64,000 bases of DNA from Macrostomum lignano (taxonomy: Eukaryota): the NCBI GenBank assembly GCA_002269645.1, contig NIVC01000173.1:186001-250000 (forward strand), read 5' to 3'. Every line of letters begins with the position of its first letter. Position 1 is the stretch's first letter. The notes beneath the pieces were generated by a model. That model ran no database searches. It was not told where the DNA came from and worked only from the letters and a program-made list of their open reading frames with translations. A program made the position numbers and the translations under genes. This document shows, in pieces, positions 9,201-61,534 of this stretch.

Positions 9201-10196
9201 CTAGTTACTAATTTGAACCTCTTAGGAGCCTAACTTCTATAAATTCTATAGGATATACTCAAGAACTACTCAAAGTAGGGCAGGAAACTACGTTTCTTTG
9301 GAAAATTTTAGGAGCCATTTTTTACCGAAAAATTATATTACGGAGAATGGAGGTTTTCATTTTTCTAGCATAAGATTTGTAATTGCTTTTATATCGAATG
9401 TCAGCATGTCAAAAGATGAACATTGGGTCTGCCCCAGTTTTGGTTAAGACCTCAAATCTATCGAATGCGAATGCAATGTTTAATATTTGGAAGCCGGCTT
9501 TTCCCAAGCTGCAATGCATTCCCTGCCTCATCCCCGTTCACCACACGCCAACCGCAGCTCTGCTTCAGCAAGCAGGATCTGCAACAGCACAACAGTGCGG
9601 CGCACAAAACTGACGCCAGGCCGCACCAATGCGACACCTGCGGTAGGCAGTTCGCTACAGCTGCCTACCTGGGCCAGCACAGGCGAATTCACACCGGTCT
9701 GAGGCCGTACGGTTGCAAATTCTGCGACAAGCGATTCACCCAGCTGTCTCATGTGCAGCAGCACGAACGGGTGCACACCGGTGACCGGCCCTATCGTTGC
9801 TGTCACTGCGCCAAAACTTTCGCCCAGATGAGCAACCTGCAGAGTCACCAGCGCCAGCATCAGCGCGACAAGCCGCACAGGTGCGCCGCCTGTCGGGCCT
9901 GCTTTGACACTCGCGACGATTTGGACACGCACACGGCTGCAAAGCACGGCGCCAACAGGTACAGCCGGGTGCTGCTGTGTAGGATCTGCAACAAGGCTTA
10001 CAATTCCGAGACTTATTTGGCTAAGCATCTTAGTAAGCACGAGCAGCAGTATAGGCAGGCTGGCGACGTCGGCGCCGGCACTAGCAAAGATAACGCCGCC
10101 GCTAGCGACGAGGTCGGCGATGTCGGTGGAGGAGTATCGTCCTCGACTGCAGCCGCGGCAGCTGCTGCGGTGGCCGCTTTTAAGTTTCCATTCTAG
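6214..10196 (+). CDS. lin-29: C2H2 zinc-finger transcription factor, rotund/squeeze/lin-29/ZNF362-384 family
   Basis: Exon 6214-6681 (Q/P/H-rich, ends FKCKICQQ|GTGAGC) joins exon 9558-10196 in phase 0 and completes the finger CKIC-x12-HNSAAH. The following fingers (FATAAYLGQHRRIH, FTQLSHVQQHERVH, FAQMSNLQSHQRQH, YNSETYLAKH) match the rotund/lin-29 array. An upstream exon is possible. Confidence 0.85.
6728..8270. repeat. 33/32-bp minisatellite (GGAATGGGTGGCACAGCTGATCAAAGAGCTTCA) in the zinc-finger gene intron
   Basis: Roughly 46 visible units with a few recurring variants. Confidence 0.97.
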
Positions 10197-11871: not shown

Positions 11872-13633
11872 ATGCCAAACTTTCGACGCACACATGAAGA
11901 GAATCGTATCTGGTGCTGCATCCTCTGCTTCCGCAAAGCCGATCGCGTTATTTCAGCTGCTCAGGCAGAACTCATCGAGCAATTTATCCTGCCAGAATTC
12001 TGTCATGCCTACATCCGTAATACTCTGCCAGGAGGCATGTGCAGCTGCTGCAGCAAGAAATTGCAGTCACAGACGTCACCTGTACCACAAGAACTGCCTG
12101 CTCGACTGCCATACCTTCAAATTGTTGCAGACTTGGAGGTTTTGCCACAACTCACACGTGAGCATCCGCACTGCTCCTGCTGTATCTGCCAGGTGGTTTC
12201 CAGCCCATCAAACAAGCGAGTGGCGGTCTGGCACCCATACATGCCTGACAGCAGCCGGGCCAACCATAAATTGCCCCAAGGACGACCTGCATATGCAGAA
12301 ACAACTCGAAGCCAGGAAAGAGACTCGGAGAAGCGCTGCACTAGGTGCTAGGTGGGCAAAGGCCTGAGGCAAGAGTGCAGCGTCTCCAGCAAGTTGCAGT
12401 ACCTGCGCGCGCTCAGCCCTACATCAAAAGAGCACATCGCTCATGACGTAATGCGTGAAAAGCTAAGAGCAGCAGCAGCATCAGGACATGGATCAATGGC
12501 TTCTATTTCCAGTGCCACCGGTGGCCCACCAATGCAGCTGAGGCATGCAAATGATTCAAATGAGCAGAGAGCGCTGAGGACAGAGACACTAGTAACGTTA
12601 AAGACATCTCTCGATCTGAGTGACCGGCAGACAAACATGGCAGCCACAATTATCAGGCAGTCGTAAGGCCGTGCAACCCGGACTGCGGGCAGCCGCAGGC
12701 AGCATCGCGGAGAGTTTTTTTGAGATGCGGCAGCTCAAATTCACTCAAAAGTCCTCAGCAGTGTTGCCACGCCACACTTTGCCCATTTTTCTTCCGCAGC
12801 ATAAGAGAAATTCCGCAGGGTAGAAAAATATGTCCTAACCAATGCAAGCCCTAAAAATGAAGCTAGACACCATTTTTACTACTTTTTAGGTTCACAAACG
12901 CCCTACCCAAGGCTGTTTTGCGCTGGTTCAGATGACCCCCCTAAGCCAGTTTTGAGCTAAAACTTCATCTCGCTGCAACTGATGCAGCTAGCTGTGAATG
13001 CATGCAAGCCGCAAGCGCGCAGGTGAATGGATAAGCAAATTCCATTCTGTATGCTCAGAAATCTTGGTACGAGGAAAGCACAGGGACAGGAAAGGAAGGG
13101 AGAGGGACAGAAAAGGAGAGGACAGGAAAGGAAGGGAGAGGATAGGACAGGAAGGGAGAGGACAGGACAGGAAGGGAGAGGAATAGGAAGGGAAAGGACA
13201 GGAAGGGAGAAGACAGGAAGGGCAGGGATACAATAAAGGTGACGGTGATCAGATGACATCAGGTAGTCTGGATCGAGTATAGAAAATCAGAAAATCACAA
13301 GAACAGTGCAACAAAATCGCAGCATAACAATTTCCACAAAGATATTGAACAACAAACCGAACCAGTAGTCAGTATTGGGGTATTGGGGTATAACATGAGA
13401 GCAAATTCAGAAATGAAAAATTTCCGTAGAGTACGAAAATCCCCTTGATTTTCCGCAGGTCTACTTAAAATTTCCTCACTGCGGAAATTCCGCAGCTAGT
13501 GGGAAGACTGGTCCTCAGGTGGCAGCTTTACTGATACCACAAGATGTTCCGTCATATGCCCCAATCTGCAGGGCCTGCTGAGCTTCATTTGCTCAAAGCG
13601 AGGATTTAGTGAGATCGATGTGAGATTGAAGCT
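11872..13633 (+). pseudogene. Decayed Chapaev/RAG1-N-like DDE transposase, 5' part (interrupted by the pPolB element)
   Basis: N-terminal H-x7-C-x2-C...P-x3-C-x2-C...H-x2-C-x-CC-x-C...GRP zinc-finger pattern (THEENRIWCCILC...LPGGMCSCC...HPHCSCCIC...QGRP). In-frame TAG at 12349 and a frameshift near 12666. The last stretch 13500-13633 reads ...VICPNLQGLLSFICSKRGFSEIDVRLKL. The family name comes from motif memory and was not searched. Confidence 0.65.
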
Positions 13634-14915
13634 ACTACTAAGGACCCATTTATCCGCCCTTTTTGGAGGTGGGGTGGGTGTCAACCCTCCCCGCCTCTCA
13701 TTGGCTGGCGCTCGGCGCGCGCGCGCCGCAGGCGCGTGGCGCCAAGCGCCGACCAGCCGCAGGCGCACCCTCCCGATATGTATGACCACCCTCCCGATAT
13801 GTACCCCGATATGTACCCCGATATGTACACCCTCCCGATATGTATACCCACCCTCCAGAGCAGCAGGCGCCCATGCCGCAGACGCCCATGCCGCCGGCAC
13901 CCCGAGTGTACACTCTCCCAAGTCGCAGGCACCCCGAGTGTACACTCTCCCAAGTCGCAGGCACCCCGAGTGTACACTCTCCCATGTCGCAGGCGCCCCG
14001 AGTGTACACTCCCCCATGCCGCAGGCACCCCGAGTTTACACTCTCCCCAGTACACTCTCCCGATATGTAGTCAGCGATATTAGGCTAGTGAAAACTACTT
14101 ATAGTAGGTGAAATTGCGTATATTTGCATAAAAAAGTAGATAAAACATATTGGTAGGTGTGAATAATGACGCATAATGCATATTAAAATGTACATATTGG
14201 AGCATATGAGCAGCAAAAAACACACAATGTAGGTGCATTTTATCGATATTTTGGCAGAAAAGTAGGTGAAATAGACAAAATAGTAGGTATAATACACAGA
14301 ACCTACTCATTAGTGTAGTAGGCGCTTGTAGATGCTAGTATAATGCAGGTGCATACATACACACAATGTAGGTGCAAATTGAGTATAATACAGGAAAATT
14401 ATAATACATAGCATATAATGTAGGCGCATTTTAAACAATACATTTTGCATATTAACTCGCAGGTACAAATTTCAGTGCATAGGGTAAAATACACACACTG
14501 CAAATTGAGTATAATGCAGGAAAATTGTGACATATACAACATATGTATGCAAAATTAAGCTTATAGGTGCAAAGTAAAATATCAGGCTTCCTAGTAAAGA
14601 GACACGCCCCCAGAGCCAGGGCCGGGGGATCCTAGCGGAGTACAGTTCAGGTAGGAGCGTTCCTAGTCTGCAACCCATAGCTTCCAAATAGGGTACGAGG
14701 GGCCAATGTTTCGAGAGGGGATCCTCAGTACAGTGCGGTCAGAGAGGAGTAACATAGAGAAATTTCTCCCCAAGTCCCAAATAAGGTTTTTTCAAGGGGA
14801 TCCCAAGTACAGTGCGCTCCCTGGTGTCAAATGATGAAGGAATCCCGCCCCCAATGCACAGTGCGCTCCGGGGTGTTAAATGAGGAAGGATCCCGCCCCA
14901 ATGTACAGTGGAGGT
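13634..14915 (+). repeat. Left terminal inverted repeat (1,282 bp)
   Basis: Reverse complement of 21291-22632. Similarity stops after ...ATGTACAGTGGAGGT (14915). Confidence 0.95.
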
Positions 14916-15277
14916 AGAGTAACAGACCGCATACAAAGAGAATTCCAGTCAAACTTTACCGCAGCTCCCACCCCAAATGAGGGTTTTAGTGGATCCCCAG
15001 AGGGTAGCTCTCCAAGTTGAGGGATCCCCCAGTGTGTTGCGAGGCCCAAGTACAGTGCAGGCAGAGAGTAATAGAGTACAAAGAGAAATTCCCTTATCAG
15101 TCAAACTCGAGCTCGATCTTCAGCCAGGGCAGTCTCCTCCTCATCAGCGCTCTCGAAACATCTGTCAAAGTAAAAAATATTCAATGTAGACAGATTATAT
15201 GTAATTTATATACGATTTATATGAAATTAAGCTTACCAAAAATCGGGTTCGCGCTGTACGGATGCGGCACGCCTCAA

Positions 15278-15775
15278 TTAGCAACCCTCGTCAAACAGAT
15301 TTCCCCAAGGGTAGGGTTTGATGCTGTCAAGGCAGTCCTGCAGATTGTCCTCTGTCTTGGCTCGCTTGGCAGACGGTGGGACCTCGGGTGCCAGCTTGAA
15401 GAGCTTGTCCAAACGGGCGGCAAACATCCGGCGCCACAGTTCAGGCGTGAATTCGATCGTGTAGCGCCAATTAAACTTTGGGTCCTGATTGAGCCAATTG
15501 CGCAGCAAACGGATCCTCCCTCGCGAAGCTTCAACTGCCTTGAAATTGCCCAACAGGACCCGCTTGTTCACGTGAAGGCGGGCAGCAGCCTCCAGGTCAG
15601 GGCGCGCAGCTTCGAGCTTCTTCCACTCTGGCTCGCTCAAGTAGATTGCAGGGAAGCCGTCCTTCCACACTCCAGCCTCGTTGGTGTAGAGACGCCGAAT
15701 TTCAATCAAGTTGTGTTCAGTTTCAAATGTGGGCTTCCGCGCCACAAAGTTTTCGTATAGAGAGATAGAAGACAT
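15278..15775 (-). CDS. PC4 (Sub1/p15)-like ssDNA-binding protein with two tandem PC4-like repeats, 165 aa
   Basis: LIEIRRLYTNEAGVWKDGFPAIYLSEPEWKKLEAARPDLEAAARL aligns by eye with the PC4 core ([46 protein letters not shown]). A degenerate second copy follows (LGNFKAVEASRGRIRLLRNW...IEFTPELWRRM). A TATATAAG box lies about 50 bp upstream. Confidence 0.75.
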   Translation of the reverse strand: MSSISLYENFVARKPTFETEHNLIEIRRLYTNEAGVWKDGFPAIYLSEPEWKKLEAARPDLEAAARLHVNKRVLLGNFKAVEASRGRIRLLRNWLNQDPKFNWRYTIEFTPELWRRMFAARLDKLFKLAPEVPPSAKRAKTEDNLQDCLDSIKPYPWGNLFDEGC

Positions 15776-16018
15776 GATTTAGCAGCAGCAGCAGCAGAGA
15801 GCTCTCTGACAGCCGTGCAGCGCCTTATATACCCCCGGATGGAGGGTGGGGTGGGTGGTGATTTTGGGGGTGATTTTTGATGATTTTGGTTGGTTTTTGG
15901 CGATTTATCCAATAACAGGCGAGCTGAGCAGATTTTTTAGTATATATACAGACCCCAGAGCCAGGGTAGAGAGATAATCCTTCTCTCCGCTCGCTCTCTC
16001 ACACTCTCTGTTTGCAAA
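15776..16018. promoter_or_regulatory. Bidirectional promoter between the PC4-like and pPolB genes
   Basis: 243-bp head-to-head spacer with TATATAAG on the minus strand (15824-15831) and TATATATA on the plus strand (15941-15948), each about 50-70 bp before an ATG. Confidence 0.6.
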
Positions 16019-19000
16019 ATGGCTAAACGCAGCGCCACCGCAACTGCTTTCCTGGCTGACAAGAGGCAACGTCTTTATGGTAAGTTTTAATTAATTTCTG
16101 TCTAGACTGTAGTTGCTAGGGTGGGGGTAGGGGCTGAGCAGCAGCAGCAGCTGCAGGGTCTGTGGGACCGCAGAGTAAACAACAAAGACTGCTGCGACAG
16201 CTGCAGGGGTCTAGACTGGAGTTGCTAGGGTGGGGTGCTGCGGCAGGGTCTGTAACAGAGAGTTGCAGGGGAGGGCTAGACAAGTTTCAGCCGGGTGTGT
16301 GCTGATAAGAAATTGCTGCTAGGGGGGTGTTGTCCAGACAGGCTGCAGCTGGGGTGCAAATTGCTGCGACAGAGAGTTGCAGGGGTGAGTAAACAAAGAC
16401 TGGGGTGGGGTGTTGTCTAGACAGGGAGGGGTGTGCTGATAAGAAATTGCTGCAAAAACAGACAGTTGCTAGGGTGCTGCGGCAGATAAGAAATTGCTGC
16501 AGAATCGTTGGGGCAGGCTAGACAAGTTACAGCCGGGTGGGGGCAGAGAGTTGCTGGGACAGACTGGGGCAGACTGATAGGGCGCTACCCAGACAGGCTG
16601 CAGCTAGGTGCAAATTGCTGCGACAGAGAGTTGCAGGGGTGAGTAAACAAAGACTGCTGCGACAGGCTGCAGCGGGGGTGCAGATAAGAAATTGCAGAGA
16701 GTTGCTGCGGGGACAGCAGAGTAAACTCTGTTAAGAAATTGCTGGGGCTAGGGCGGGGAAACACGCTGGGGCCAGGAAAATGACAGATTCTTCTGGTTTT
16801 TTATCTCCTTGTGTTTTTTCAGACGCGTTTGTCCCGCCAACACAGCCGGAATCTGTTACCGGACCGGGTGAGTTATCCCGCCCCCCATTTCCCACACAGA
16901 CCCGCGCTGACTCACACTCCCCCATTCCCCCCATGCAGGTTTTACGGCCCGGCTGGATAATCAGCGTGACCTGCCCAAGTTTAGGGCAAAGGGTGTCGAG
17001 TATGTGGTGCGTATTACCAACACCGAAGATTTGCGGGAGGTGTTTGCCGACATGCTCGAAGTTTTCAAGCAAGATTTGGCTGGTGATGACTTTATGGCCG
17101 CGAAATTCGAGAGCGACAATATGCTCAAAGCGGCCCATACTCCCCCGGTGCGTGCATCCCGCATGACGGCTGAATTGTTGTTTAAGCACATCAACAAGAT
17201 TGTACAGTCGGATGCCACTGTCCTGACGGGCAACTTTTCTATCCGGTTGCTAAAGGCCTGGGTGCCTCGAGGTGGATGTGCTCTCGAGAACAAGCATCTA
17301 GAAGAGAGGCACGCTTTTTCAAAGCACTATGTCCGCATCACCAACTCGGACAAGAGATGCCTGCTGCGCGCTCTGGTCGTGGCCTGCGCCTACCTGCAAT
17401 TCGTGGCCAAGTCCATCACCGAGAAGGTGTGGCGCACAATCAAGGTCAATTCGCCCAAGCAGACTAAGCTGGTGGCTGAGCTACAAATCGAAGCGGGTCT
17501 CTACTCGGTAAGTTTCTAGTATTTTTCTGATAAGAATTTTTACGCAGTATCAGGGAATACTAAAAGAATTTTTACGCAGTATCAGGGAATACTAAAAGAA
17601 TTTTTACACAGTATCATGGAGTACTAAAAGATATATTTTCTGATAAGATTTTTACACAGTATCATGGAATACTAAAAGATATATTTTCTGATAAGATTTT
17701 TTACACAGTATCAGGGAATACTAAAAGAACCATACTCTGATAAGAAATTTTACGATAAGGAACACTAAAAGAAATATTTTACCCTCCACACAGACTCTTC
17801 AAACCGTCTCGCAGGCTGGTCCTTTCGGGGTGGATGCACTGCCCGAAGCGATCCGTGCCCTGAACCGGCTGCATCCGGGGCACGATTTTGGTGTACGCGT
17901 GTACCGCGCAGAGGAGGCCAACAGGTGCATCTTCAACCTGCCTGGCACCGAGATTCTGCACCTGCACCTGGTCGAGCAGCACTTTAATGTGGTTACCAAG
18001 CTGCCTGCGTTTTTCGGCTCCGTGCGCTACTGCCCCAAGTGCGAGATGGCCTACGACTGCGCCAACGCCAAGCACAAGTGTGCGGATGCCTGCAGTACAT
18101 GCAAGACTCCGGGCTCCAACTGTAAGGCAAACCGCGCATATGTAAGATGCCATGATTGCGGGCTAAATTGCTATAATGCTCAGTGCCTAGAAAATCACAA
18201 ACGCAAGAATAAGGCCGGCAGATCGCGCTGTGATTCGGTCCACGTTTGCGGCACGTGTGGCTATCTAGAAGAACTAAAAGTAGGCCAGCCCCCTGAGCAT
18301 CAGTGTGGTTATGCCAAGTGCCCAGTCTGCAAGCAGTACGACGAAACTGCCACCCACGAGTGCTTTGTCACCCCGCCAAAAGCCAAAGAGTCTAGCGCCC
18401 CGTATGTTTACTATGATTTCGAGACGTACTTGGACTCTGGCAAGCAGCACCGGGTACACTTGGTTACGGCTGCCACCTCCTGCGAGGCGTGTCCCAAACT
18501 CTTCCCCAGGCCCCGCTGCAGCGTGTGCGGGGGACTACACAGCTCAGCCAATTGCATTGCGGGACGCAATCTGGCGCTGGATTTTACGAGCTGTGTCTCG
18601 CACAATGACTGTGCCTGTGGGATGCGAGAGTTTGTATCTGTCGGGCCGCACTCTATCGATGCATTTTACTGCTGGCTGACTAGTGTGTTCAAGCAGGGGG
18701 CAATTGCTATTGCGCACAATGGCTCTGCGTATGACGCATTCCTCCTGCTCGGCGCCCTACTCAACGGACTGGCCAAGAAGAAGCCGCAAGTGATCTTCCA
18801 GAACAGCCGCCTAATGTACATGAAGTGCGACAAGATCACCTTCAAGGACAGCCTCAATTTCATCCCTATTGGTCTGGCGCAATTCCCAAAGGCGCTTGGT
18901 TTGGGCACCCAACTGACCAAAGGAGATTTCCCGCACGTGTTTAACCAGCCGGAAAACTGGGGGTACGTGGGACCCTACTGCTCAATTGATATGTACGGCG

Positions 19001-21154
19001 GGAAGAAGAATAAGCAGCATGACTCCATCGCCGACTGGCTGGCCAAGCAGGAGGGACAGGTGTTTAATTTCAATAAGGAGTACCTGGACTACTGCCTGCA
19101 GGACACGTTAATTTTGCGGGAAGGCTGTCTAAAGTACACCCGCCTGATTAAGGACATTTGCGGACTGGACGCATTTGTTCAATCCAACACCATTGCGGGC
19201 TTGGCTATGGCTGTTTTCACCACCAAGTTTATGGAGCCCAACACTCTTGGGGTGATTTCCCGCCGGTCCGATGTACAGTCGCACAAGGCGCGGTGCTGGC
19301 TTGCGCATTTGAATGCAACCGAGTTTGGCGGCCGGTTGCGGACAGCCGATTCTGGCGGCGAGGCTTTCGCCATGGGCCGTAAGGTCGACGGCTTCGACCC
19401 AGAGACCAGGACAGTGCTGCAGTTTCATGGCTGCTTCTACCATGGCTGTCCCAAGTGCTTCCCCAACGGCGACGTGCTGCACCCGCTCAAGAACCAGCCA
19501 ATGCGGGCGATTTATGAGGAGACTGAGCGCTTCACCCGGCTGCTCTCCACTGCCTACAATGTGCGTGTTCTGTGGGAGCACGACTATCAGGACGAGGGAG
19601 CGCCAGTCCAGCAGCCTATTCGCCTGGAGGAAGCCCTGTTTGGCGGCCGTACCGAGGCTTTTGTCCCGCACGCCGAGGCCACCGAGACTGTAGAGCTGCG
19701 CTATCGGGATGTGGTAAGTTTGTACACTTGTACACACACAGTTGACATGCGTTTGAGTTTATCTTATCCTTATCCCCTAGGTGTCGCTCTACCCGACTGT
19801 CAACAAGTTTGACAAGTACCCGGTCGGGCACCCGGTACACCACCCCGAGCCTCATCTACTGGATGAGCTGCAGCTGGCCCGGTATTTTGGCATCGCCGAG
19901 GTGTCGATTCTGCCGCCAACCAATCTCCACATCCCGCTACTGCCCGCCAAGATTAACAAGAAGCTGGTTTTCGGCCTCTGCCGCGTCTGCATGGAGACCC
20001 AGTGCAGCAGCGAGTGTACACACACTGACGCTGAGAGAATGCTCCGCGGCACGTGGTCAACCCCAGAGCTCCACAAAGCCCTGCAGTTGGGTTACAAGCT
20101 GCAGTCAGTTCATGCCCTGGCCTATTGGACCGAGACTCGCACGGGCCTGTTTGCAGATTATGTAAACACTTTTTTGAAGCTCAAAGCCGAGTCTAGCGGT
20201 TCGCCGGGGATGGCTGAGGACGCCAAGGCTGCCTACATGGCCAGCTTTTTCGAGCGCGAAGGCGTCCGGCTGGAAAAGGTGGAGGAGAATCCTGGCTTGC
20301 GCTTTGTGGCCAAGATTTTTCTAAACTCGTAAGTTTTTCTACTTGCAGTGGGGGCCGTGTTTTTCTACTTACAAAAAAAAATTATTTTTCCCTGCAGGCT
20401 CTGGGGCAAATTCTGCCAGCGCGACGACCTGACCTCCACAGAGATTGTGGACAGCTACGAGGCGTGGCTGCAGCGCCTGACCGACCCCTCGATCAAGGTC
20501 AAGTCGTGCGAGCCAATTGGGGAGAGCTTCATGATGCTCGAGTACAAGCCCCGATTTGGCGGTGCTGGCGAGCGGGCGTTCAAGTACGCTAATGTACCTA
20601 TTGGCGTTTTCACCACCTCCCACGCCCGGCTGCGACTCTACGAGGCTCTGGAGGGCCTAGGAACCCGAGTCATTTACGCCGATACCGATTCGTAAGTAAT
20701 TTTTTCACTGTCTCTGTCTCTCTTTCTCCCCTTAACACTTTATTCTCCTCCTCCTCCCAGGGTTGTATACCGCTGCTCCCCGGGCGAGTACGAGCCTCCG
20801 GGTGGTTCGAGTTTGGGGCAGTGGACTGACGAGGTACCTGCTGGCTGCCGCATGGTACAGTTCACCACGGGAGGCCCCAAGCTCTACCGGTACTTAGTGG
20901 AGAAGCCCGACGGGTCGCTGTACTCGGTGCTCAAGTGCAAGGGCATCAGAGTCACCCCCGAGATTTCCGAGCGCGAGGACGAGCTGCAGGAAATTCTGCG
21001 CCACGGCGGGACTGTACGCCTGCCCCAGGCCCAGTTCAGGCGCGATAAGGCTAGCTGTACAATCCGGACCCTCGAGATGGACAAGACTTTCCAGCGCGTA
21101 ATGACTAAGAGGGTGTATGGGGCCGCTAGCCGCCCGTATGGCTTTCGGGAGTGA
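16019..21154 (+). CDS. Protein-primed family B DNA polymerase (Polinton group-2 type), 7 exons, 1,276 aa
   Basis: Exons 16019-16079, 16823-16867, 16939-17507, 17794-19713, 19781-20328, 20398-20691 and 20761-21154 total 3,831 nt with all GT-AG borders and no stops. Motifs: ExoI YYDFET, ExoII AHNGSAYD, FKDSLNF, KGDFPH, ExoIII YCLQD, Vsr-like insert VDG...FHGCFYHGC, motif A RDVVSLYP, motif B KIFLNSLWGKF, motif C YADTDS, and pPolB-type C-terminal GPKLY, LKCKG and RPYGF. Confidence 0.95.
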
Positions 21155-21290
21155 GTGAAAGATAAGGATCTATCTTTTTTACGCCTCCCTGCCTGGGATT
21201 CCCCTATGTGCCCACTTGGGATCCCTTGACTCGTGGGGATGAAAATGGTTTTACGCCCGCACTGTACTTAGGGGTCCTTACTCATTTGGC

Positions 21291-22632
21291 ACCTCCACTG
21301 TACATTGAGCGGGATCCTTCCTCATTTAACACCCCGGAGCGCACTGTGCATTGGGGGGCGGGATTCCTTCATCATTTGACACCAGGGAGCGCACTGTACT
21401 TGGGATCCCCTTGAAAAAACCTTATTTGGGGCTTGGGGAGGAATTGGAATTTCTCTCTGCCCTCACTGTACTTGGGATCCCCTTGAAAAAACCTTATTTG
21501 GGGCTTGGGGAGGAATTTCTCTATGTTACTCCTCTCTGACCGCACTGTACTGAGGATCCCCTCTCGAAACATTGGCCCCTCGTACCCTATTTGGAAGCTA
21601 TGGGTTGCAGACTAGGAACGCTCCTACCTGAACTGTACTCCGCTAGGATCCCCCGGCCCTGGCTCTGGGGGCGTGTCTCTTTACTAGGAAGCCTGATATT
21701 TTACTTTGCACCTATAAGCTTAATTTTGCATACATATGTTGTATATGTCACAATTTTCCTGCATTATACTCAATTTGCAGTGTGTGTATTTTACCCTATG
21801 CACTGAAATTTGTACCTGCGAGTTAATATGCAAAATGTATTGTTTAAAATGCGCCTACATTATATGCTATGTATTATAATTTTCCTGTATTATACTCAAT
21901 TTGCACCTACATTGTGTGTATGTATGCACCTGCATTATACTAGCATCTACAAGCGCCTACTACACTAATGAGTAGGTTCTGTGTATTATACCTACTATTT
22001 TGTCTATTTCACCTACTTTTCTGCCAAAATATCGATAAAATGCACCTACATTGTGTGTTTTTTGCTGCTTATATGCTCCAATATGTACATTTTAATATGC
22101 ATTATGCGTCATTATTCACACCTACCAATATGTTTTATCTACTTTTTTATGCAAATATACGCAATTTCACCTACTATAAGTAGTTTTCACTAGCCTAATA
22201 TCGCTGACTACATATCGGGAGAGTGTACTGGGGAGAGTGTACACTCGGGGTGCCTGCGGCATGGGGGAGTGTACACTCGGGGCGCCTGCGACATGGGAGA
22301 GTGTACACTCGGGGTGCCTGCGACTTGGGAGAGTGTACACTCGGGGTGCCTGCGACTTGGGAGAGTGTACACTCGGGGTGCCGGCGGCATGGGCGTCTGC
22401 GGCATGGGCGCCTGCTGCTCTGGAGGGTGGGTATACATATCGGGAGGGTGTACATATCGGGGTACATATCGGGAGGGTGGGCATACATATCGGGAGGGTG
22501 CGCCTGCGGCTGGTCGGCGCTTGGCGCCACGCGCCTGCGGCGCGCGCGCGCCGAGCGCCAGCCAATGAGAGGCGGGGAGGGTTGACACCCACCCCACCTC
22601 CAAAAAGGGCGGATAAATGGGTCCTTAGTAGT
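21291..22632 (-). repeat. Right terminal inverted repeat (1,342 bp)
   Basis: Matches the left TIR except for a handful of substitutions or 1-bp indels, one fewer 12-bp GTACCCCGATAT unit and an extra 72-bp duplication (units starting at 21392 and 21464). Confidence 0.95.
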
Positions 22633-22898
22633 GAAGCTGGGGATGGATGGAGGTGGTGGCTCGCTAAAAATCTGCCTTAGTGTCGCCCCAGTACGAGCTA
22701 CTGCCTACTGAACAACAGGCAGAGTCAACACCTAAGAAGCTGAGCAGGGAGTCACAAATAAGCAACTTTGGCGTAAAAAAACTGTTTATCATCGCAATTG
22801 CTGAGGATGTCCAGGAGAACTATGCAAATGTGCGAGCACTTCTAGATGAGCTAGACTTGACATCGATTAAGTTCACAGTCGCTTGCAACACTGGCTGA
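22633..22898 (+). pseudogene. Decayed Chapaev/RAG1-N-like transposase, 3' part (catalytic-core start)
   Basis: Continues the left flank in frame as GMDGGGGSLKICLSV. After a frameshift it reads FGVKKLFIIAIAEDVQENYANVRALLDELDL...FTVAC and then breaks off. Confidence 0.7.
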
Positions 22899-40972: not shown

Positions 40973-43900
40973 ATGACAGGAAATTCTGGTATGGAGCATC
41001 TCATTTTTGTCATTAACCAACTTCAGGATGCATGCGCATCATCTGGAACGTCTATTCGAATTGATCTACCTCAGATTGCCGTCGTTGGCAGTCAGAGTGC
41101 AGGAAAAAGTAGCGTTCTAGAAAACTTTGTGGGCAGGTATGTTTCGATTTCTTCAGAAAGCATTTTTCATGTGCATGTAAATCCTAAGTTTCAGCTGACA
41201 CAAAGCCACGATGAATACTGCATTTTATTTTTTGTCGTATTTTCATTACATATTGTTTATTAATACACTGTATATTTTAATTAAATTAAAAACAGAGACT
41301 TTTTGCCGCGAGGGTCTGGAATCGTCACAAGGCGACCTTTAATTTTGCAGCTGATGAATTATCAAACCGGTAAGCGACGATTATTTAAATAATTTCTGCT
41401 GCAATACAGCAATCAATTTAAAACGATTTAAAACACTTCATCACCAGAATACGCCGAGTTCGGCCACATTCGCGGTAAAAAAATTGTGAACTTCGACGAA
41501 GTCCGTCGCGAAATCGAAGTTGAGACAGACCGTCTCACAGGGCAGAACAAGGGCATCTCAAATGTGCCTATCACTCTCCGAGTTTACAGTCCTCAAGTTC
41601 TCAACCTGACACTGGTTGACCTGCCCGGCATGACCAAAGTGGCAGTTGGCGACCAGCCTCCGGATATTGAGCAGCAAGTTCGAGCCATGATTTGGGAATT
41701 CATTTCCAAGGATAATTGCCTTATTCTGGCTGTCTCGCCGGCCAATTCAGACTTGGCGAATAGCGACGCATTGAAACTGGCGAAAGAGGCAAGCTTAATA
41801 AATAAAACTAATTGTGCTTCATCTAAATTTAGCTAGCGGTATTACAGCATTTTTTTCCTCAAACTCTGTTTTATCGTTTGTCTTTCATAAATCTTGAATC
41901 AGTCTTTATCCCAAACACACACGTTTCCCCTGTCATGACTCCCCCTTTGACACGGTACTCATTTTATTTGCTAATTCTTGCACCTAGTGAAACCCAATGC
42001 ACAGCTAGTTCCATCGAATTCATTCTATACTTTCTTTCTTCATAATTTAAACAATCCAATAAACCTGTAATATTTGCTCCATTCTTAGAATCGTATATCC
42101 TCCAATCATATTCCTAGAATGCTATCCTCCCACCAATATTCATTCTTATAATCTCATTCTCAACTCCCAAAATGTTTTTAGACTCGAATCCTCACACTTA
42201 GGATCCCATTCTCCCAATGTATTCTTAGAATCCCATTCTCCAACGTATTCTTAGAATCCCATTCCCACCATATTCTTAGAATCCCATTCCCACCATATTC
42301 TTAGAATTCCAACCCCACTGTCCCACCCAGGCTGATCCCAGCGGCTCTCGCACAATCGGGGTTCTCACCAAACTCGACCTCATGGACGCCGGTACAGACG
42401 CTCGCGATGTACTAGAGAATCGGTTCCTGCCTCTTCGTCGAGGCTACGTCGGCGTCGTTAACCGGTCGCAGAAAGACATCGACGGTCGGAAGGACATCAG
42501 CTCGGCGATGGCGGCGGAGAGGAAATTCTTTCTCGGCCATCCGGCCTACCGGCACATGGCCGAGAGGATGGGCACTGCTCACCTGCAGAGGTGCCTCAAT
42601 CAGCAGCTAGTCGGGCACATCCGGGATACCCTGCCAACGCTGCGGGCCGCCCTGCAGAGTCGCCTCACCGAGCTGGAGGCCGAGCATCGCGCCTTTGGCG
42701 GTCTTGATCCGGACGATCCCAACGCTAAGGCGAAAATTATGGCAACGTAAGACTTTTAAATTTCACCTCTTTCCCATATCCCAGATTTAAAATCCCTACA
42801 CCCTATTCCTCTTTCCCGTATCCCAGATTTAGAATCCCTACACCCTACTCCTCTTTTCCCATATCCCAGATTTAGAATCCCTACACCCTACTCCTCTTTT
42901 CCTATATCCCAGATTTGGAATTCCTACACCCTATTCCTCTTTTCCCATATCCCAGATTTAGAATCCCTACACCCTACTCCTCTTTTCCCATATCCCAGAT
43001 TTAGAATCCCTACACCCTACTCCTCTTTTCCTATATCCCAGATTTAGAATCCCTACACCCTACTCCTGTTTTCCCATATCCCAGATTTAGAATCCCTACA
43101 CCCTATTCCTCTTTCCCATATCCCAGATTTAGAATCCATACACACTACTCCTCTTTTCCCATATCCCAGATTTAGAATCCCTACACCCTACTCCTCTTTC
43201 CCATATCCCAGATTTAGAATCCCTACACCCTATTCCTCTCTTCCCATATCCCAGATTTAGAATCCCTACACCCTATTCCTCTCTTCCCGTATCCCAGATT
43301 TAGAATCCCTACACCCTATTCCTCTTTTCCCGTGTCCCCAACATTTAGAATTTCAGTGGGTTAGTAACCGCAGAAATTATTAAAGATACATTAATAAGGA
43401 ATAAATTCTCACCCAGCACCTCACTCTTTGCGCTGCAGTTTAATCAACCAGTTCATTGAGAATTTCACCAAAGCAATCGAAGGCTTCGGCGAAGTCAGCA
43501 CCAAGGAATTGTCGGGCGGTGCAAAAATTAACAAAATCATTCACGACCGATACATGTACATGCTGCATAAGGTGACTGAATTGGTTTCTTATTAAATTTT
43601 TTTATTTTTTTATTGATTACACCTGCCCAATTGGGCCAGATGTGCAACCGACAGTCAGCCGCAGCTATTGCGCGGCGCATCTGAAGGCTGCGTACGGCTG
43701 TTCAGTCCAAGGACTGGGGGGGGAGTCGCCTAACACCCTCAATTACCCCAGCTAATGCTGGCACCCATTTTACAGCTGGGTGAACTGAAGCAATGCAGAG
43801 TTAATTGTCTTGCTCAAGGACACAAATTGTTCCAGTGGGATCGGGAATCGAACCCCCGACATTTCAGTTGTGAGTCAGACGCTCCAACCACTAGGCTACA

Positions 43901-49901: not shown

Positions 49902-52900
49902 CACTCTACCATTTGTATTTGGAAACTATACATAACTATACATGCAAATATTATAACTTCGCTTATAATAAACAGAGCTATTATTGCATTGCCTTTGCGT
50001 TATAACAACTGAGGCTTGAATAATATTAGAGTTTCGCTACGCTGCGCATTTGCGCCGCTTGAAAATGAAGAATCAGAGCCTTCTAATTCTGCTGGAATCA
50101 ACTGCTACATTTCAACTGCCGTCGGTTGGGTAGCGGAAGAGCAGTGAAGTTTAGAAGGTAGAGGCGGAGAGACAGACCGGAGAGAAAGGAGAGAGAAGAG
50201 GGGAGAGAGAAGAGGGGAGAGAGAAGAGGGGAGAGAGGAGAGAGGAGAGGGGAAAGAGGAGAGAGGAGAAATGAGAGAGGAGAGATGAGAGAGGAGGGGG
50301 AAGATGAGAGATGAGAGAGGAGAGGGGAAAGAGGAGAGAAGAGAGATGAGAGAGGAGAGATGAGAGAGGAGAGGGGAAAGAGGAGAGAAGAGAGAGGACA
50401 GAGGACAGAGGGGAGAGAGGAGAGAGTAGAGAGGAGAGAAGAGACAGGAGGGAGGAGAATATAGATAAAAGAAAAGAAGAGAGAAAAGAGAGAATAGGAG
50501 CGCATCCTCTGGACGAGGAAGGCCAGAAGTGTTCCATAGGGCAATGTCAGATACAAACGCAACGATATGAAAGGAGCAAATACACTGCTTGAGTAGATTC
50601 AAATGGTTGAAATTCTTCTGAATGCTAAACACTGAAGAAATGTAATGAAAAGTTCAGTTTTTTGTTGCTTGTTTGACAAGTATACGAAAAGTAACTAAAA
50701 ACCAACTTAACTTCTAAACCGCGGCAATACAGGAGCGCCAGCAAAAGTACATGCTGCCCTTGGAAGGCCTTCGGGTTCGCGACGGCGAGAACCGATTGTT
50801 CAGCAAAAGAAGCGTCATCGTGCTCTTCAACGCTGATGGCAGGTTGGAGCTACGATCTGCATTAAAAACTTGAAGATTCGTAGTACTAATAGAAACATCG
50901 TATTGAAAGTCATAGTGTAACTACTGTGAGTAGAAACGGTGAAATTTAAATCTAGAAAACGTTTGAATTACCTGAACAGAAACACGTACAAAGACTGCAA
51001 GAGTCTGGAGCTTGCGGCCGAGTCAGCCGACGATGTCGACACTTGGAAGGCGGCGCTGCTTCGCGCTGGAGTTTATCCAGAGGGTGACGAGGAGGAGAAA
51101 GAGGAGGTGCGAGAAATGCAAGCAAGTGTTTGCTTTGTTACCTCACTCCGCATCCACCTCCCTCCGCACCCACCTCACTCCTCAACCACCTCACTCTGCA
51201 ACCACCTCACTCCTCGCCCACCTCACTCCTTACCCACCTCACTCCTCACCCACCTCACTCCTCACCCATCTCACTCCTCAACCACCTCACCCCTCACCCA
51301 CCTCGTTTCTCAAACACCTCACTCCTTACCCACCTCACTCCTCACCCACCTCACTCCTCAACCACCTCACTCCTCACCCACCTCACTCCTCACCCACCTC
51401 ACTCCTCAACCACCTCACTCCTTACCCACCTCACTCCTCACCCACCTCACTCCTTACCCACCTCACTCCTTACCCACCTCACTCCTCACCCACCTCACTC
51501 CTCAACCACCTCACTCCTCACCCACCTCACTCCTCGCCCACCTCGCTCCTCGCCCACCTCACTCCTCAACCACCTCACTCCGCATCCACCTCCCTCCGCA
51601 CCGTACATAATTCGTTCTCCTGTCACAGAGACTACGGATATCTATGTTAATATTTACTGCCAAGAATAAAATTATTGGATCAATACAACTCTTACTCATC
51701 AAACTCGCACTCAACCAGGCTAGAAGCAGCAGTATAGAGGAGGAAACCCTGGACCCGTCCATGGAGCGTCAAGTTGAGACAATCCGGAGTTTGGCCAAAT
51801 CCTACATGCGCATAGTGGACAAAGCGCAACGAGACTTTGTGCCAAAGACCATCATTCACATGGTGGTTAATGACGTAGGCTTTGGGATGTGCAAATTCTG
51901 TCTTAAATATGACTAATTCTTACAATTATGTCACAGTTTAGGACGGAGGTTTGTCTGGATCTAGAATGGGTTGCTTTGAATCGAGATGAGAGAATGTGGG
52001 TAAAGAGTGAGGTGGATAAGATGTGTGAAGTGGTTGAGGAATGATGCGGGTGAGGGGTGAGGTGGGTGAGGAGTGAGGTGGGTGAGGAGTGAGGTGGGTG
52101 AGAAGTGAGGTGGGTGAGGAGTTAGGTGGGTAAGGAGTGAGGTGGGTGAGGAGTGAGGTGGTTGAGGAGTGAGGTGGGTGAGGAGTGAGGTGGTTGAGGA
52201 GTGAGGTGGGTGAGGAGTGAGGTGGTTGAGGAGTGAGGTGGGTGAGGAGTGAGGTGGGTAAGGAGTGAGGTGTTTGAGAAACGAGGTGGGTGAGGAGTGA
52301 GTTGGGTGAGGAGTGAGGTGGGTGAGGAATGAGGTAGTTGAGGAGTGAGGTGTTTGAGAAACGAGGTGGGTGAGGAGTGAGTTGGGTGAGGAGTGAGGTG
52401 GGTGAGGAGTGAGGTGGGTGAGTGAGGTGGGTGAGGAGGGAGGTGGGTAAGGAGCGAATTGGTTGAAGAGTGAGGTGGTTGAGGAGTGAGGTGGTTGAGG
52501 AGTGAGGTGGTTGAGGAGTGAGGTGGTTGAGGAGTGAGGTGGTTGAGGAGTGAGGTGGTTGAGGAGTGAGGTGGTTGAGGAGTGAGGTGGTTGAGGAGTG
52601 AGGTGGTTGAGGAGTGAGGTGGTTGAGGAGTGAGGTGGTTGAGGAGTGAGGTGGTTGAGGAGTGAGGTGGTTGAGGAGTGAGGTGGTTGAGGAGTGGGTG
52701 AGTGAGGAGTGAGGTGGGTGAGGAGTGAGGTGATTGCAGAGAGAGTGATTCAGATGCGAGGCCAATACCCACCACAAAGGCACTGAAATAAAATCGCTCC
52801 CCTTCCGCCACAACGCAGCTGAGATCATTCCTGAAGACGTCGCTGCCAGTGCAGCTGTACAGCTGCTCCGACCAGGCCAGCCTGATGGAGGAATCCGAGG

Positions 52901-58949: not shown

Positions 58950-61534
58950 ATGCCGAATCAACAATCAGTTTTTAAGCCTCTTCATCCTCATCTGTTGCTG
59001 CTGCTTATTCTGACCCTGCTATTGTCGGGTCAGCCGCAACCGGTTAACGCCTGCTTCAGCCAGTCGCACCTGTACCAGCCGAGAGAATCCTCCAACAGGC
59101 AGCGCTCCAGTCACTCCTTCGCATTCGGAGAATATCAACCGAAGACCTCCGAGTTGGCGGTTCAGGCCAGCGGGCCAGAGGGGGCCCCGGTGAGACAGTC
59201 GCGACATCTGCTGAGATCCCGATCTGATTTGCTGGAGTTCAACGGCAGGCGCAGGTCGCGGTACATGACTCGGGTGAGTTGGATTGGCTTTGCTAGGGGT
59301 CTGCAGGTATTGATCTATAGGTAGGGATCTACAGGTAGGGATCTACAGGTAGGGATCTACAGGTAGGGATCTACAGGTAGGGATCTACAGGAAGGGATCT
59401 ACAGGTAGGGATCTACAGGTAGGGATCTACAGGTAGGGATCTACAGGTAGGGATCTACAAGTAGGGATCTACAGGTAGGAATCTACAGGTAGGGATCTAG
59501 AAGTATTGATTTGCAGGTGGGGATCTACAGGTGGAGACCTATGGGTAGGGATCTAGAAGTAGAGATCTACAGATAGGGATCTACTGGTAAAAATCTTCAG
59601 GTAGAGATCTGTAGCTAGGGATCTAAAGTCACAGATCTACAGATAAAGGTAAGGATCAACGGTAGAGATTTGAAATTAGGGATCTGCAGGTAGGAATCTA
59701 CTGGTAGGAGGGATCTACAGGTAGAAATGTACAGGTAGGGATCTACAGGTAGAGATTTGTAATTAGGGATCTGCAGGTAGGAATCTACTGGTAGGAGGGA
59801 TCTACAGGTAGAAATGTACAGGTAGGGATCTACAGGTAGGGATCTACAGGTAGGGATCTACAGGTAGGGATCTACAGGTAGGGATCTACAGGTAGGGATC
59901 TACAGGTAGGGATCTACAGGTAGGGATCTACAGGTAGGGATCTACTATAAGCCCACTATAAGCCTACTACAAGCCTGCGGTAATGGCTAATCAGACTCAC
60001 TAACAGCACAACTGTCTTCTCACAACGCAGCGCTGCAAAGAGAAGCTGGAGCAATTGGCCCTGCTAGTTCGCAACCAATGGAACGGTCACGTTCGCATCC
60101 GGGTTCACCACGCCTGGATGCCGAAGCACGACGCCTATTGGGACAGCCAAGTCGGCCACCGCGGCCTCGAGTCTTTGCACTTTTCTGGCCGAGCAGTGGA
60201 CATGTCTCTGCTGAAATTGAAACCCAATCTGAATTATCGAGACGTAACCTTGGGTCGATTGGCCCAACTGGCTTACTATCAGGCCTATTTCGACTATTGC
60301 AAAGTTTTAAAGGACACTGTGCACTGTTCAGTGAAGTCCGGTGAGCGTTTCAATAATTCAAGTTTAATTGCATCATAGATACTGAGGCAGCGATGATTAT
60401 CCAAGATTTTAGTTGCATCTTAGTGACTGAGGCAGCGATGATTATCCAAGATTTTAGTTGCATCTTAGTGACTGAGGCAGCGATGATTATCCAAGATTTT
60501 AGCCACATCTTATAGTGACTGAGGCAGCGATGATTATCCAAGATTTTACTTGTATCTTAGTGACTGAGGCAGCGATGATTATCCAAGATTTTACTTGTAT
60601 CTTAGTGACTGAGGCAGCGATGATTATCCAAGATTTTAGCCACATCTTATAGTGACTGAGGCAGCGATGATTATCCAAGATTTTACTTGTATCTTAGTGA
60701 CTGAGGCAGCGATGATTATCCAAGATTTTAGCCGCATCTTAGCGACTGAGGCAGCGATGATTATCCAAGATTTTGTGCTGGTAGACTGATAATATATCAG
60801 TAGACAATTATCGATAGAAACACTCGCACCCCACCTCACCAGACGATCCCATGGACTCGGACTGGCTCGCCTGTTTTCCTTCCAAGGCGACGGTTGTCAA
60901 ACGTCACCATGGCAACAGTGGCAACCACAACAACAGCAACAACGCAGTGGTTGCAATTGACACCCTTACACCGGGAGATGAAATTCTTACTCTGGACGAG
61001 CTGACAGGAAAGCAGGTGTTCACCAGAGTTCTCGGTTATCACCATAAACTCGGAGACAGCGAGGCAACCTATCTGAAGATCCAATTAGCCAACGGACATC
61101 AGCTGGAGGTGTCGCCCAATCATCTGGTCTTCTCCACTTCGGCAACGTCGCTAAAAATTCGACCAACCTACGCTGCCGACTTATCGATTGGCGATCGTTT
61201 GATGACGCCGCAATCGTCTGACGGAGGCTGGACGGGAGTAGTGAAAATTTCCGTGAGACATCGTCGAGGTCGGTACGCTCCGATGACGTCGGCTGGTCAC
61301 CTGCTGGTTAACGGAGTCTGGGTGTCCAGCTACGCGCACACTCGTCATCAAGCCGCTGCTCATGTCCTGTTTGCTCCTCTGAGATGGTTGGATTTCCTTT
61401 GTAGCAGCGGCGGCAGGTTCTGCAACTCGATGACGTCAGATGCGTACGATAGAGACGGAGTGCACTGGTATTCGGGGTGGCTGCATCGAGCTGCTCAACT
61501 CATGGCTCCCGGTAGCGTTCTGTTTCCCAACTAA
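58950..61534 (+). CDS. hh: Hedgehog precursor (signal peptide, Hedge signalling domain, Hint/Hog autoprocessing domain), 3 exons, 441 aa, divergent
   Basis: Exons 58950-59273, 60031-60340 and 60843-61534 total 1,326 nt, with intron positions matching canonical hh genes (MTR|RCK and SVKS/D). Motifs: ASG, MTRRCKEKL, NQW, SLHFSGRAVD, HCSVK, autoprocessing CFP, GDEIL, SPNH, YAPMT and VNGV..SSYA. Confidence 0.93.
59320..59945. repeat. 14-bp minisatellite (GTAGGGATCTACAG), hedgehog intron 1
   Basis: Directly visible. Confidence 0.95.
60380..60775. repeat. 45-47-bp minisatellite (ACTGAGGCAGCGATGATTATCCAAGATTTT...), hedgehog intron 2
   Basis: About 9 units. Confidence 0.95.

Follow-up and report, generated by a model that had tools for sequence, protein, structure and literature searches.

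The Polinton-type element and its polymerase gene

The window, by which we mean the whole 64,000-nucleotide stretch of DNA analysed, carries an element of 9.0 kb (13634-22632) whose inverted repeats measure 1.18 kb and which is flanked by a 6-bp target site duplication. Between the repeats we find only a pPolB gene and a PC4-like open reading frame (ORF), with no retrovirus-like integrase; the virion module (MCP, mCP, ATPase, protease) is likewise absent from the element. The features are listed here, intron sites being given as profile column and phase; X1, X2 and X4 denote the sequencing runs discussed in the next section.

13628..13633, no strand: 6-bp target site duplication, left copy (identical 6-mer at 22633-22638)
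13634..14814, + strand: left terminal inverted repeat, beginning ACTACT (1,181-nt alignment, 98.6% to the right arm)
15278..15775, - strand: intronless PC4-like ORF, putatively ssDNA-binding (Pfam PC4 E 0.034, under the cut-off; best Atlas matches PC4 clusters at 0.87-0.88, a lead only)
16019..21154, + strand: pPolB gene (PF03175 on two exon blocks; homologues; splice joints)
16080..16822, + strand: intron 1, 743 nt, with internal repeats, in the variable N-terminal region (GT..AG joint in X1, X2 and X4)
16868..16938, + strand: intron 2, 71 nt, in the variable N-terminal region (GT..AG joint in X1, X2 and X4)
17508..17793, + strand: intron 3, 286 nt (119-320 across copies), outside the motifs (joint across it in X1, X2 and X4; shared by the sister family)
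17794..19713, + strand: exon 4, with Cys-rich region, exonuclease, Vsr-like domain and first residues of motif A (1,920 nt, 640 codons stop-free; PF03175)
19714..19780, + strand: intron 4, 67 nt, in Pol motif A, phase 0, site 809.0 (joint in X1 and X4; 30/30 copies; spliced aligner)
20329..20397, + strand: intron 5, 69 nt, in Pol motif B, phase 2 of Ser, site 995.2 (joint in X1, X2 and X4; 30/30 copies; spliced aligner)
20692..20760, + strand: intron 6, 69 nt, in Pol motif C, phase 2 of Ser, site 1091.2 (30/30 copies; spliced aligner; RNA support indirect)
21464..22632, - strand: right terminal inverted repeat (alignment to the left arm)
22633..22638, no strand: 6-bp target site duplication, right copy, matching the left one

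The pPolB protein matches PF03175 in a Pfam search (E 5e-15 and 2e-14), and its top protein matches carry the label Macrostomum lignano. A 6-bp target site duplication surrounds all eight elements examined that have the window's end type, four of which bear a pPolB. The pPolB with exonuclease, Vsr-like and Pol A/B/C motifs, the long terminal inverted repeats, the 6-bp duplication and the multi-copy state all liken the element to the Polintons/Mavericks, as these are portrayed in excerpts of PMC8097293, 10.1101/2022.07.12.499685 and 10.1101/2023.08.22.554363. Polinton core genes are, however, described as intronless in the available text of the first two of these sources, whereas the window gene has six introns, three of them in catalytic motifs. 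The element differs further in that its integrase and virion genes are found on a separate family with matching ends, and in that it ends in ACTAC, whereas the complete Polintons of the same genome begin AGTAGT.

Splicing of the active-site introns

Introns 4, 5 and 6 all have GTAAGT donors, with TAG, CAG and CAG acceptors in that order and a pyrimidine tract at each. They interrupt RDV/VSLYP in phase 0 and LNS/LWG and DTDS/VVY each in phase 2 within Ser. A spliced aligner that we wrote for this analysis was given a profile built on 70 pPolB proteins from outside Macrostomum (the ruler for sites such as 809.0 in motif A, 995.2 in B and 1091.2 in C); it recovers all three at exactly these positions, and the coordinates, lengths, splice signals and junctions given by an earlier sequence-only reading of this DNA are all correct. 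That reading was also right that the 1.9-kb exon with the exonuclease and Vsr-like domains is free of introns, and that no polymerase can be made without the spliceosome: reading through introns 4, 5 and 6 meets a stop within 32, 1 and 1 codons, respectively. Since introns 1-3 by themselves already impose this dependence on splicing, the placement of the others in motifs is needless for it.

Splice joints were sought in contigs from four of the 24 listed runs (X1, X2, X4 and X17), whose kinds are guesses made by the search tool, none being recorded as RNA. X1, X2 and X4 are RNA-type runs from three different studies; X17 behaves like DNA and has no GT..AG joint among the matches listed. The proposed check of junctions against transcripts thus bears out introns 1, 2, 3 and 5 in three runs and intron 4 in two (X1 and X4, not X2), and introns 4 and 5 are precisely removed from RNA. 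For intron 6, no joint occurs among the matches listed (15 of 19) in the four runs; one X4 contig leaves the window sequence at 20691, the last exon base before the intron, with 133 letters remaining, and this supports its removal only indirectly. The RNA-type runs also cover intron sequence, for which either DNA or unspliced RNA could account.

The chance that six randomly placed introns would fall in motifs A, B and C is, for the window gene alone, 4e-5, or 0.006 when any three of 11 motifs are allowed; the remaining three of its six introns (1-3) lie outside motifs. The sequence-only reading had proposed this comparison, and the placement it reported is indeed not what chance would give.

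Copies of the element and a sister family

At least 40 copies of the element are listed at 90-100% identity, a count that is a lower bound. One near-identical copy sits at a different target site, which indicates recent movement. All three motif introns are kept in 30/30 of the best copies examined, with lengths of 65-121, 67-83 and 67-75 nt that are often not multiples of three; the donor of intron 6 is GTGAGT in 9/30 and GTATGT in 1/30. Codon differences in exons 4-7 of 29 copies are mostly synonymous (1,423 versus 389 non-synonymous), and 12 of the 29 have neither frameshift nor stop in these exons. A frameshifted pseudogene, or recoding instead of splicing, is ruled out by the joints, the conserved copies and the selection data; the motif introns are ordinary U2-type introns of a transcribed Polinton-type polymerase under purifying selection.

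A sister pPolB family (62-74% protein identity) has introns at the identical three sites and in the same phases, and the intron sequences of the two families are wholly unlike. Because the sites are shared, motif placement in the Macrostomum lineage counts as one inherited event: the introns are fixed in the family and were inherited from the ancestor of the two subfamilies. Two gene calls from other samples, at 61-65% identity, span exactly the segment from VSLYP to KIFLNS. The genome also holds several further pPolB families, which are intronless. One locus (L097, G000:C234:57207-58499) is a single AT-rich, degraded pPolB, 36-46% identical to the window gene, with A, B and C unbroken by introns. 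Nested and inverted copies of the sister polymerase family are clustered at G000:C157, about 54-87 kb (L066, L127-L129), and a 2.3-kb insertion within intron 6 of one sister-family copy contains no convincing ORF.

Motif introns in distant polymerases

To look beyond Macrostomum, metagenome contigs were scanned for motif B followed within 0-7 nt by GTAA. Of 91 matching loci, 67 were not pPolB and were dropped; the 24 that were all have a motif-B intron, at 995.2 (eight loci), 996.0 (one) or 997.1 (15). Since every locus was chosen for this intron, the enrichment of motif B itself stays outside the test, which rests on the loci's other introns. Macrostomum was left out of the counts, near-identical loci were collapsed to one lineage, two doubtful introns (764.2 and 790.2) were retained as non-motif, and twelve gene calls that stop just before motif A, along with other stop-only ends, were left uncounted, there being no DNA to check.

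On these terms motifs A and C hold 7 of the 22 lineage-by-site events, where 0.54 would be expected, and the Vsr-like motif holds three more. Scattered introns in related elements would have made the pattern in the window a matter of chance; what the distant pPolBs display instead is motif bias. The excess also holds against a null confined to conserved positions (the top quarter of columns), where 7/19 events are in A or C versus 1.35 expected (P 0.0002), and it remains after weighting by proto-splice context with general background frequencies. Same-site pairs number 8 against 0.2 expected, and such same-site events may be inherited rather than independent. With each site counted once, 3/17 lie in A or C (P 0.004) and 6/17 in the catalytic motifs (P 0.0002); against the conserved-only null the single-count figures are marginal (A/C, P 0.056; catalytic motifs, P 0.021; clustering, P 0.04).

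Two of the metagenome loci are interrupted in A, B and C alike (811.1/997.1/1090.1 and 810.2/996.0/1090.1). Introns in all three motifs are thus seen in three lineages; five of the six B/A positions differ, and none of the sites is one that the window element uses. In seven loci, whose closest named proteins include coral, the motif-B intron is the sole intron over most or all of the gene. The motif introns measure 41-225 nt across lineages, too short for a nuclease ORF, of which none was found in any of them; two are of the GC-AG type (L155, motif C, 1090.1; L224, motif A, 810.2). No intein was seen in any pPolB motif. When 58 introns were compared, sequence matches were confined to close relatives at one site, apart from one match of 14 nt. 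An introner origin is ruled out, no similar intron sequence recurring across sites or lineages in this set.

A protein search made without motif selection points to the Vsr-like motif as well: about 38 of 120 truncated gene calls stop there at a donor-like signature, although they belong mostly to one clade and are without confirmation from DNA. They comprise P0188, P0248 and some 36 related calls, a large clade ending at the Vsr-like His-Gly motif; P0219 and P0245 read through an in-frame intron-like insert at that motif. ORF-based screens therefore split intron-bearing pPolBs at their motifs and score them as dead. Motif introns are nonetheless a minority state, A, B and C being unbroken in 70/88 homologues, some of which are gene models. 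An unselected search of viral contigs gave 42 loci, eight with the polymerase domain aligned and none of these eight with a motif intron (two weak in-frame intron calls at variable columns were set aside). The motif-B donor pattern found nine loci in viral contigs, none of them pPolB, and the motif-C donor pattern matched 0/242 loci, being too strict to be informative. Taken together, the introns of pPolBs pile up in the catalytic motifs (the Vsr-like His-Gly motif and Pol A, B and C), each of which has two or three insertion positions close to one another.

In our trees the carriers of motif introns are interspersed with intronless ORFs, which means that gain (or loss) happened repeatedly. 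AU tests were made on 46 of 122 rows picked for coverage, the first tree having been seen beforehand. They reject the monophyly of all 14 motif-B carriers (p-AU 0.0004) and of the eight carriers of 995.2 (p-AU 0.0014), and do not reject that of the six carriers of 997.1 (p-AU 0.245). The rejections fit either repeated gain or repeated loss. That there are several positions per motif, and that 995.2 is found on both AGY and TCN serine codons, favours several gains.

Comparison with known intron and intein systems

According to the available parts of PMC2814812, spliceosomal introns have no preference for conserved sites, which inteins and group I introns do prefer. The pPolB introns resemble the latter in being insertions in the most conserved active-site motifs, PolB inteins having three strictly conserved sites (excerpts of PMC2814812 and PMC549080), and the distance from the PolB intein site YGD/TDS to the motif-C introns of the window and of other lineages is 4 and 8 nt (PMC549080, in part). 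Unlike these elements, they are short GT-AG (some GC-AG) introns with neither an ORF nor a self-splicing domain, and their positions vary inside the motif. The other two PolB intein sites are presumably motifs A and B.

The spliceosomal homing introns (shintrons) of mirusviruses carry HNH, GIY-YIG or VSR-like nucleases. In the portions of PMC12768974 consulted for this, they are like the pPolB introns in that a nuclear DNA virus bears spliceosomal introns in its key genes; different introns at one site and, apparently, a preference for certain genes are further parallels. The pPolB introns, in contrast, encode nothing and appear to favour the polymerase, which in the loci examined is the only gene with introns: next to four pPolBs that have introns, the genes for integrase, ATPase and capsid are each a single frame, and their invariant integrase and ATPase motifs are intron-free. 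Dinoflagellate introners are another case of host-type introns inside Polinton-like elements (PMC12166617, in part); they are, however, repeated sequences, whereas the pPolB introns share none between sites or lineages, and the word 'motif' does not occur in that paper. The text available from PMC2777158, PMC11296320, PMC12220804 and PMC11244446 contains nothing on polymerase introns. Our literature search, confined to text outside subscription journals, the 2024 MMBR review, Repbase and supplements, brought up no paper that deals with introns placed in pPolB motifs, with Polintons of Macrostomum or with a Polinton in two parts.

Origin of the motif introns

We tentatively attribute the motif introns to site-directed gain at invariant motif DNA followed by trapping, with a confidence somewhat short of even. 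Intronless alleles would be cut by an agent that recognises invariant motif DNA, for which a homing-type nuclease from the Polinton pool is the most plausible candidate, and repair insertions at motif codons would survive only when cleanly spliced. An intron anywhere within the recognition site would render the allele resistant and so let it spread in a multi-copy family; once trapped, it would be removable only by exact deletion. The motif introns would then be scars or shields rather than a regulatory switch. Site-directed gain is favoured because inteins and group I introns, which home into conserved sites, show just such a pattern. Polinton polymerases do bear inserted HNH or VSR domains (10.1101/2023.08.22.554363, in part), and there is precedent for an intron and an intein being mutually exclusive at one codon (PMC3749507). 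The weak point of this explanation is that neither a nuclease nor an intein nor any shared intron sequence turned up in our comparisons.

Trapping without any targeting agent would be simpler: insertions could occur anywhere, with loops absorbing them as coding insertions or losing them by imprecise deletion, and invariant codons keeping clean introns alone, which could be lost only exactly. The introns do follow conservation in general (mean column identity 0.78 versus 0.52), in-frame insertions of 12-53 residues do occur at variable pPolB columns, the excess of distinct sites over the conserved-only null is the marginal one noted above, and a like argument has been made for inteins in the accessible text of PMC2814812. 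Yet five windows as conserved as A and C hold none of the 22 events, identical sites recur, and the invariant motifs of integrase and ATPase have no introns in the loci examined, so that we think trapping by itself rather unlikely. Perhaps, instead, an early pPolB already had the introns, most lineages lost them, some introns slid by a few bases and recombination moved others, in which case their placement would be one old accident. The recurrence of 995.2, 997.1, 1090.1, 810.2 and 701.1 across distant lineages, the pairs of sites one base apart (995.2/996.0 and 701.0/701.1) and the possible single clade of 997.1 carriers are what such ancestry predicts. It would also require many losses, given the large unbroken majority of homologues, and introns that slid by 2-5 nt across invariant codons; the presence of 995.2 on two classes of serine codon points to separate gains, and the first placement (P 4e-5 to 0.006) would be left unexplained. 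We therefore regard shared ancient introns as quite unlikely.

The sequence-only reading had offered functional explanations, of which a tissue- or germline-specific splicing switch finds no support: donors are near consensus and spliced forms occur in three studies. More broadly, retention in the soma or under stress might silence the polymerase, or yield terminal-protein/exonuclease forms that lack it. The early stops in retained introns would serve such a switch, as would the intron coverage in RNA-type runs (ambiguous, as stated) and the restriction of introns to polymerase genes with none in virion genes. However, any intron upstream of motif C would suffice, so that motif position is not predicted, none of the window gene's six introns contains AATAAA or ATTAAA, and intron sequence differs wholly between the two subfamilies; a switch thus seems very unlikely. 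The same reading's suggestion that introns protect long intronless transcripts from silencing fares no better, for the 1.9-kb exon stays whole and the genes of the partner family described below are intronless. A different escape from silencing may be imagined, in which small RNAs or repressors primed by other Polinton families target conserved stretches and an intron splits the target in DNA and nascent RNA. This would predict a motif bias with flexible position, and the genome does have several other, intronless pPolB families, one of them at 36-46% identity. But the target is restored in spliced mRNA, and families with 40% protein identity are probably too dissimilar in nucleotide sequence; we consider this, too, highly improbable.

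The origin and site choice of spliceosomal introns are a long-standing question, and these introns are reported to lack a preference for conserved sites. Since many pPolB lineages have introns in the same motifs, at a small number of adjacent positions, the question becomes testable by census and biochemistry. If a nuclease arms race is really at work, it would offer a natural system for intron gain at predictable sites.

A polymerase-less family with matching ends

A genome search with the window element's end led to a second family, whose sequence in common with it is confined to the terminal 23 bp and which likewise has 6-bp duplications. Its members are polymerase-less 10-10.5-kb elements with integrase and virion genes and ends like those of the window element (L121-L124, L241-L242):

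G000:C4:378061-392019
G000:C976:136034-146601
G000:C1070, about 37.7-47.8 kb

This family carries an rve integrase and a double jelly-roll-like capsid gene, and further ORFs were called minor-capsid-, protease- and ATPase-like by position, motif and similarity to genes of complete elements, with no Pfam match over the cut-off. No pPolB was found by profile search in the three copies read. Repeat pairs span 10.3-10.7 kb in 10/12 cases, and those of a second capsid subfamily, of which one complete copy was read and the others are known by coordinates, span 9.7-10.4 kb in 11/16; such spans leave no space for a 5-kb polymerase gene. Near-full-length matches to the capsid gene number 31, at 86-100% identity, and none of them, among the matches listed, adjoins an intron-bearing polymerase. 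The end type ACTACTA is common to the window family and one capsid family, while the end type ACTACGTA occurs in the sister polymerase family and in the one read copy of the second capsid family. In the partner family, the genes for integrase, capsid and ATPase each consist of one frame without introns. The claim that the introns confine the element to nuclear Pol II expression stands for the polymerase gene alone.

The window element resembles the replication half of a Polinton but has no integrase, and falls outside the group on that count. It is reasonably likely that the polymerase-less capsid family is the other half of a two-part Polinton, the two complementing each other; alternatively, help could come from complete Polintons. 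As the group is defined by having polymerase and integrase together, a two-part Polinton would strain that definition. In the available text of PMC8502044, the bidnavirus genome also comes in two segments whose termini match, and one of them carries a pPolB related to that of Polintons. They are ssDNA viruses, whereas the Macrostomum parts are integrated dsDNA elements with target site duplications, the second of which carries an integrase and a double jelly-roll capsid gene. As to the wider picture, in which a nuclease repeatedly primes or selects A/B/C introns in an arms race over the polymerase active site and Macrostomum has a two-part Polinton with shared, shuffled ends, we hold it rather improbable that both parts are true; the arms race taken separately is possible, if not probable.

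At the element ends (window 13634-13660 and about 45 copies), the terminal 27 nt consist of short modules in a mosaic that is reshuffled from copy to copy. These modules are common to the polymerase and capsid families and are usually identical at both ends of a copy, which suggests that ends may be swapped during replication. Two palindromic elements, L125 (G000:C1944, 5.7 kb) and L126 (G000:C1607, 9.4 kb), have the same end type and target site duplications without polymerase or capsid genes and are probably non-autonomous derivatives.

Within the capsid family, the copy on G000:C4 contains a THAP/P-element transposase insertion; the left end of the family has a Fic-domain gene (L121:1265-2044), and a stop-free frame (L121:3581-4114) has a weak TBP match (E 1e-4, just under the cut-off). 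A 117-aa ORF of the partner family was considered as PC4 and dropped, not being similar to the PC4-like ORF of the window.

Other features of the window

Outside the element, the window contains, all on the + strand, a host C2H2 zinc-finger exon (9420-10196), a host dynamin-family exon (41432-41836) and a host Hint-module (hedgehog-type) ORF (60818-61534). Many minisatellite arrays with units of 8-43 nt occupy 24300-62200, and among them is a pair of inverted arrays of a 16-nt unit at 51060-52700.
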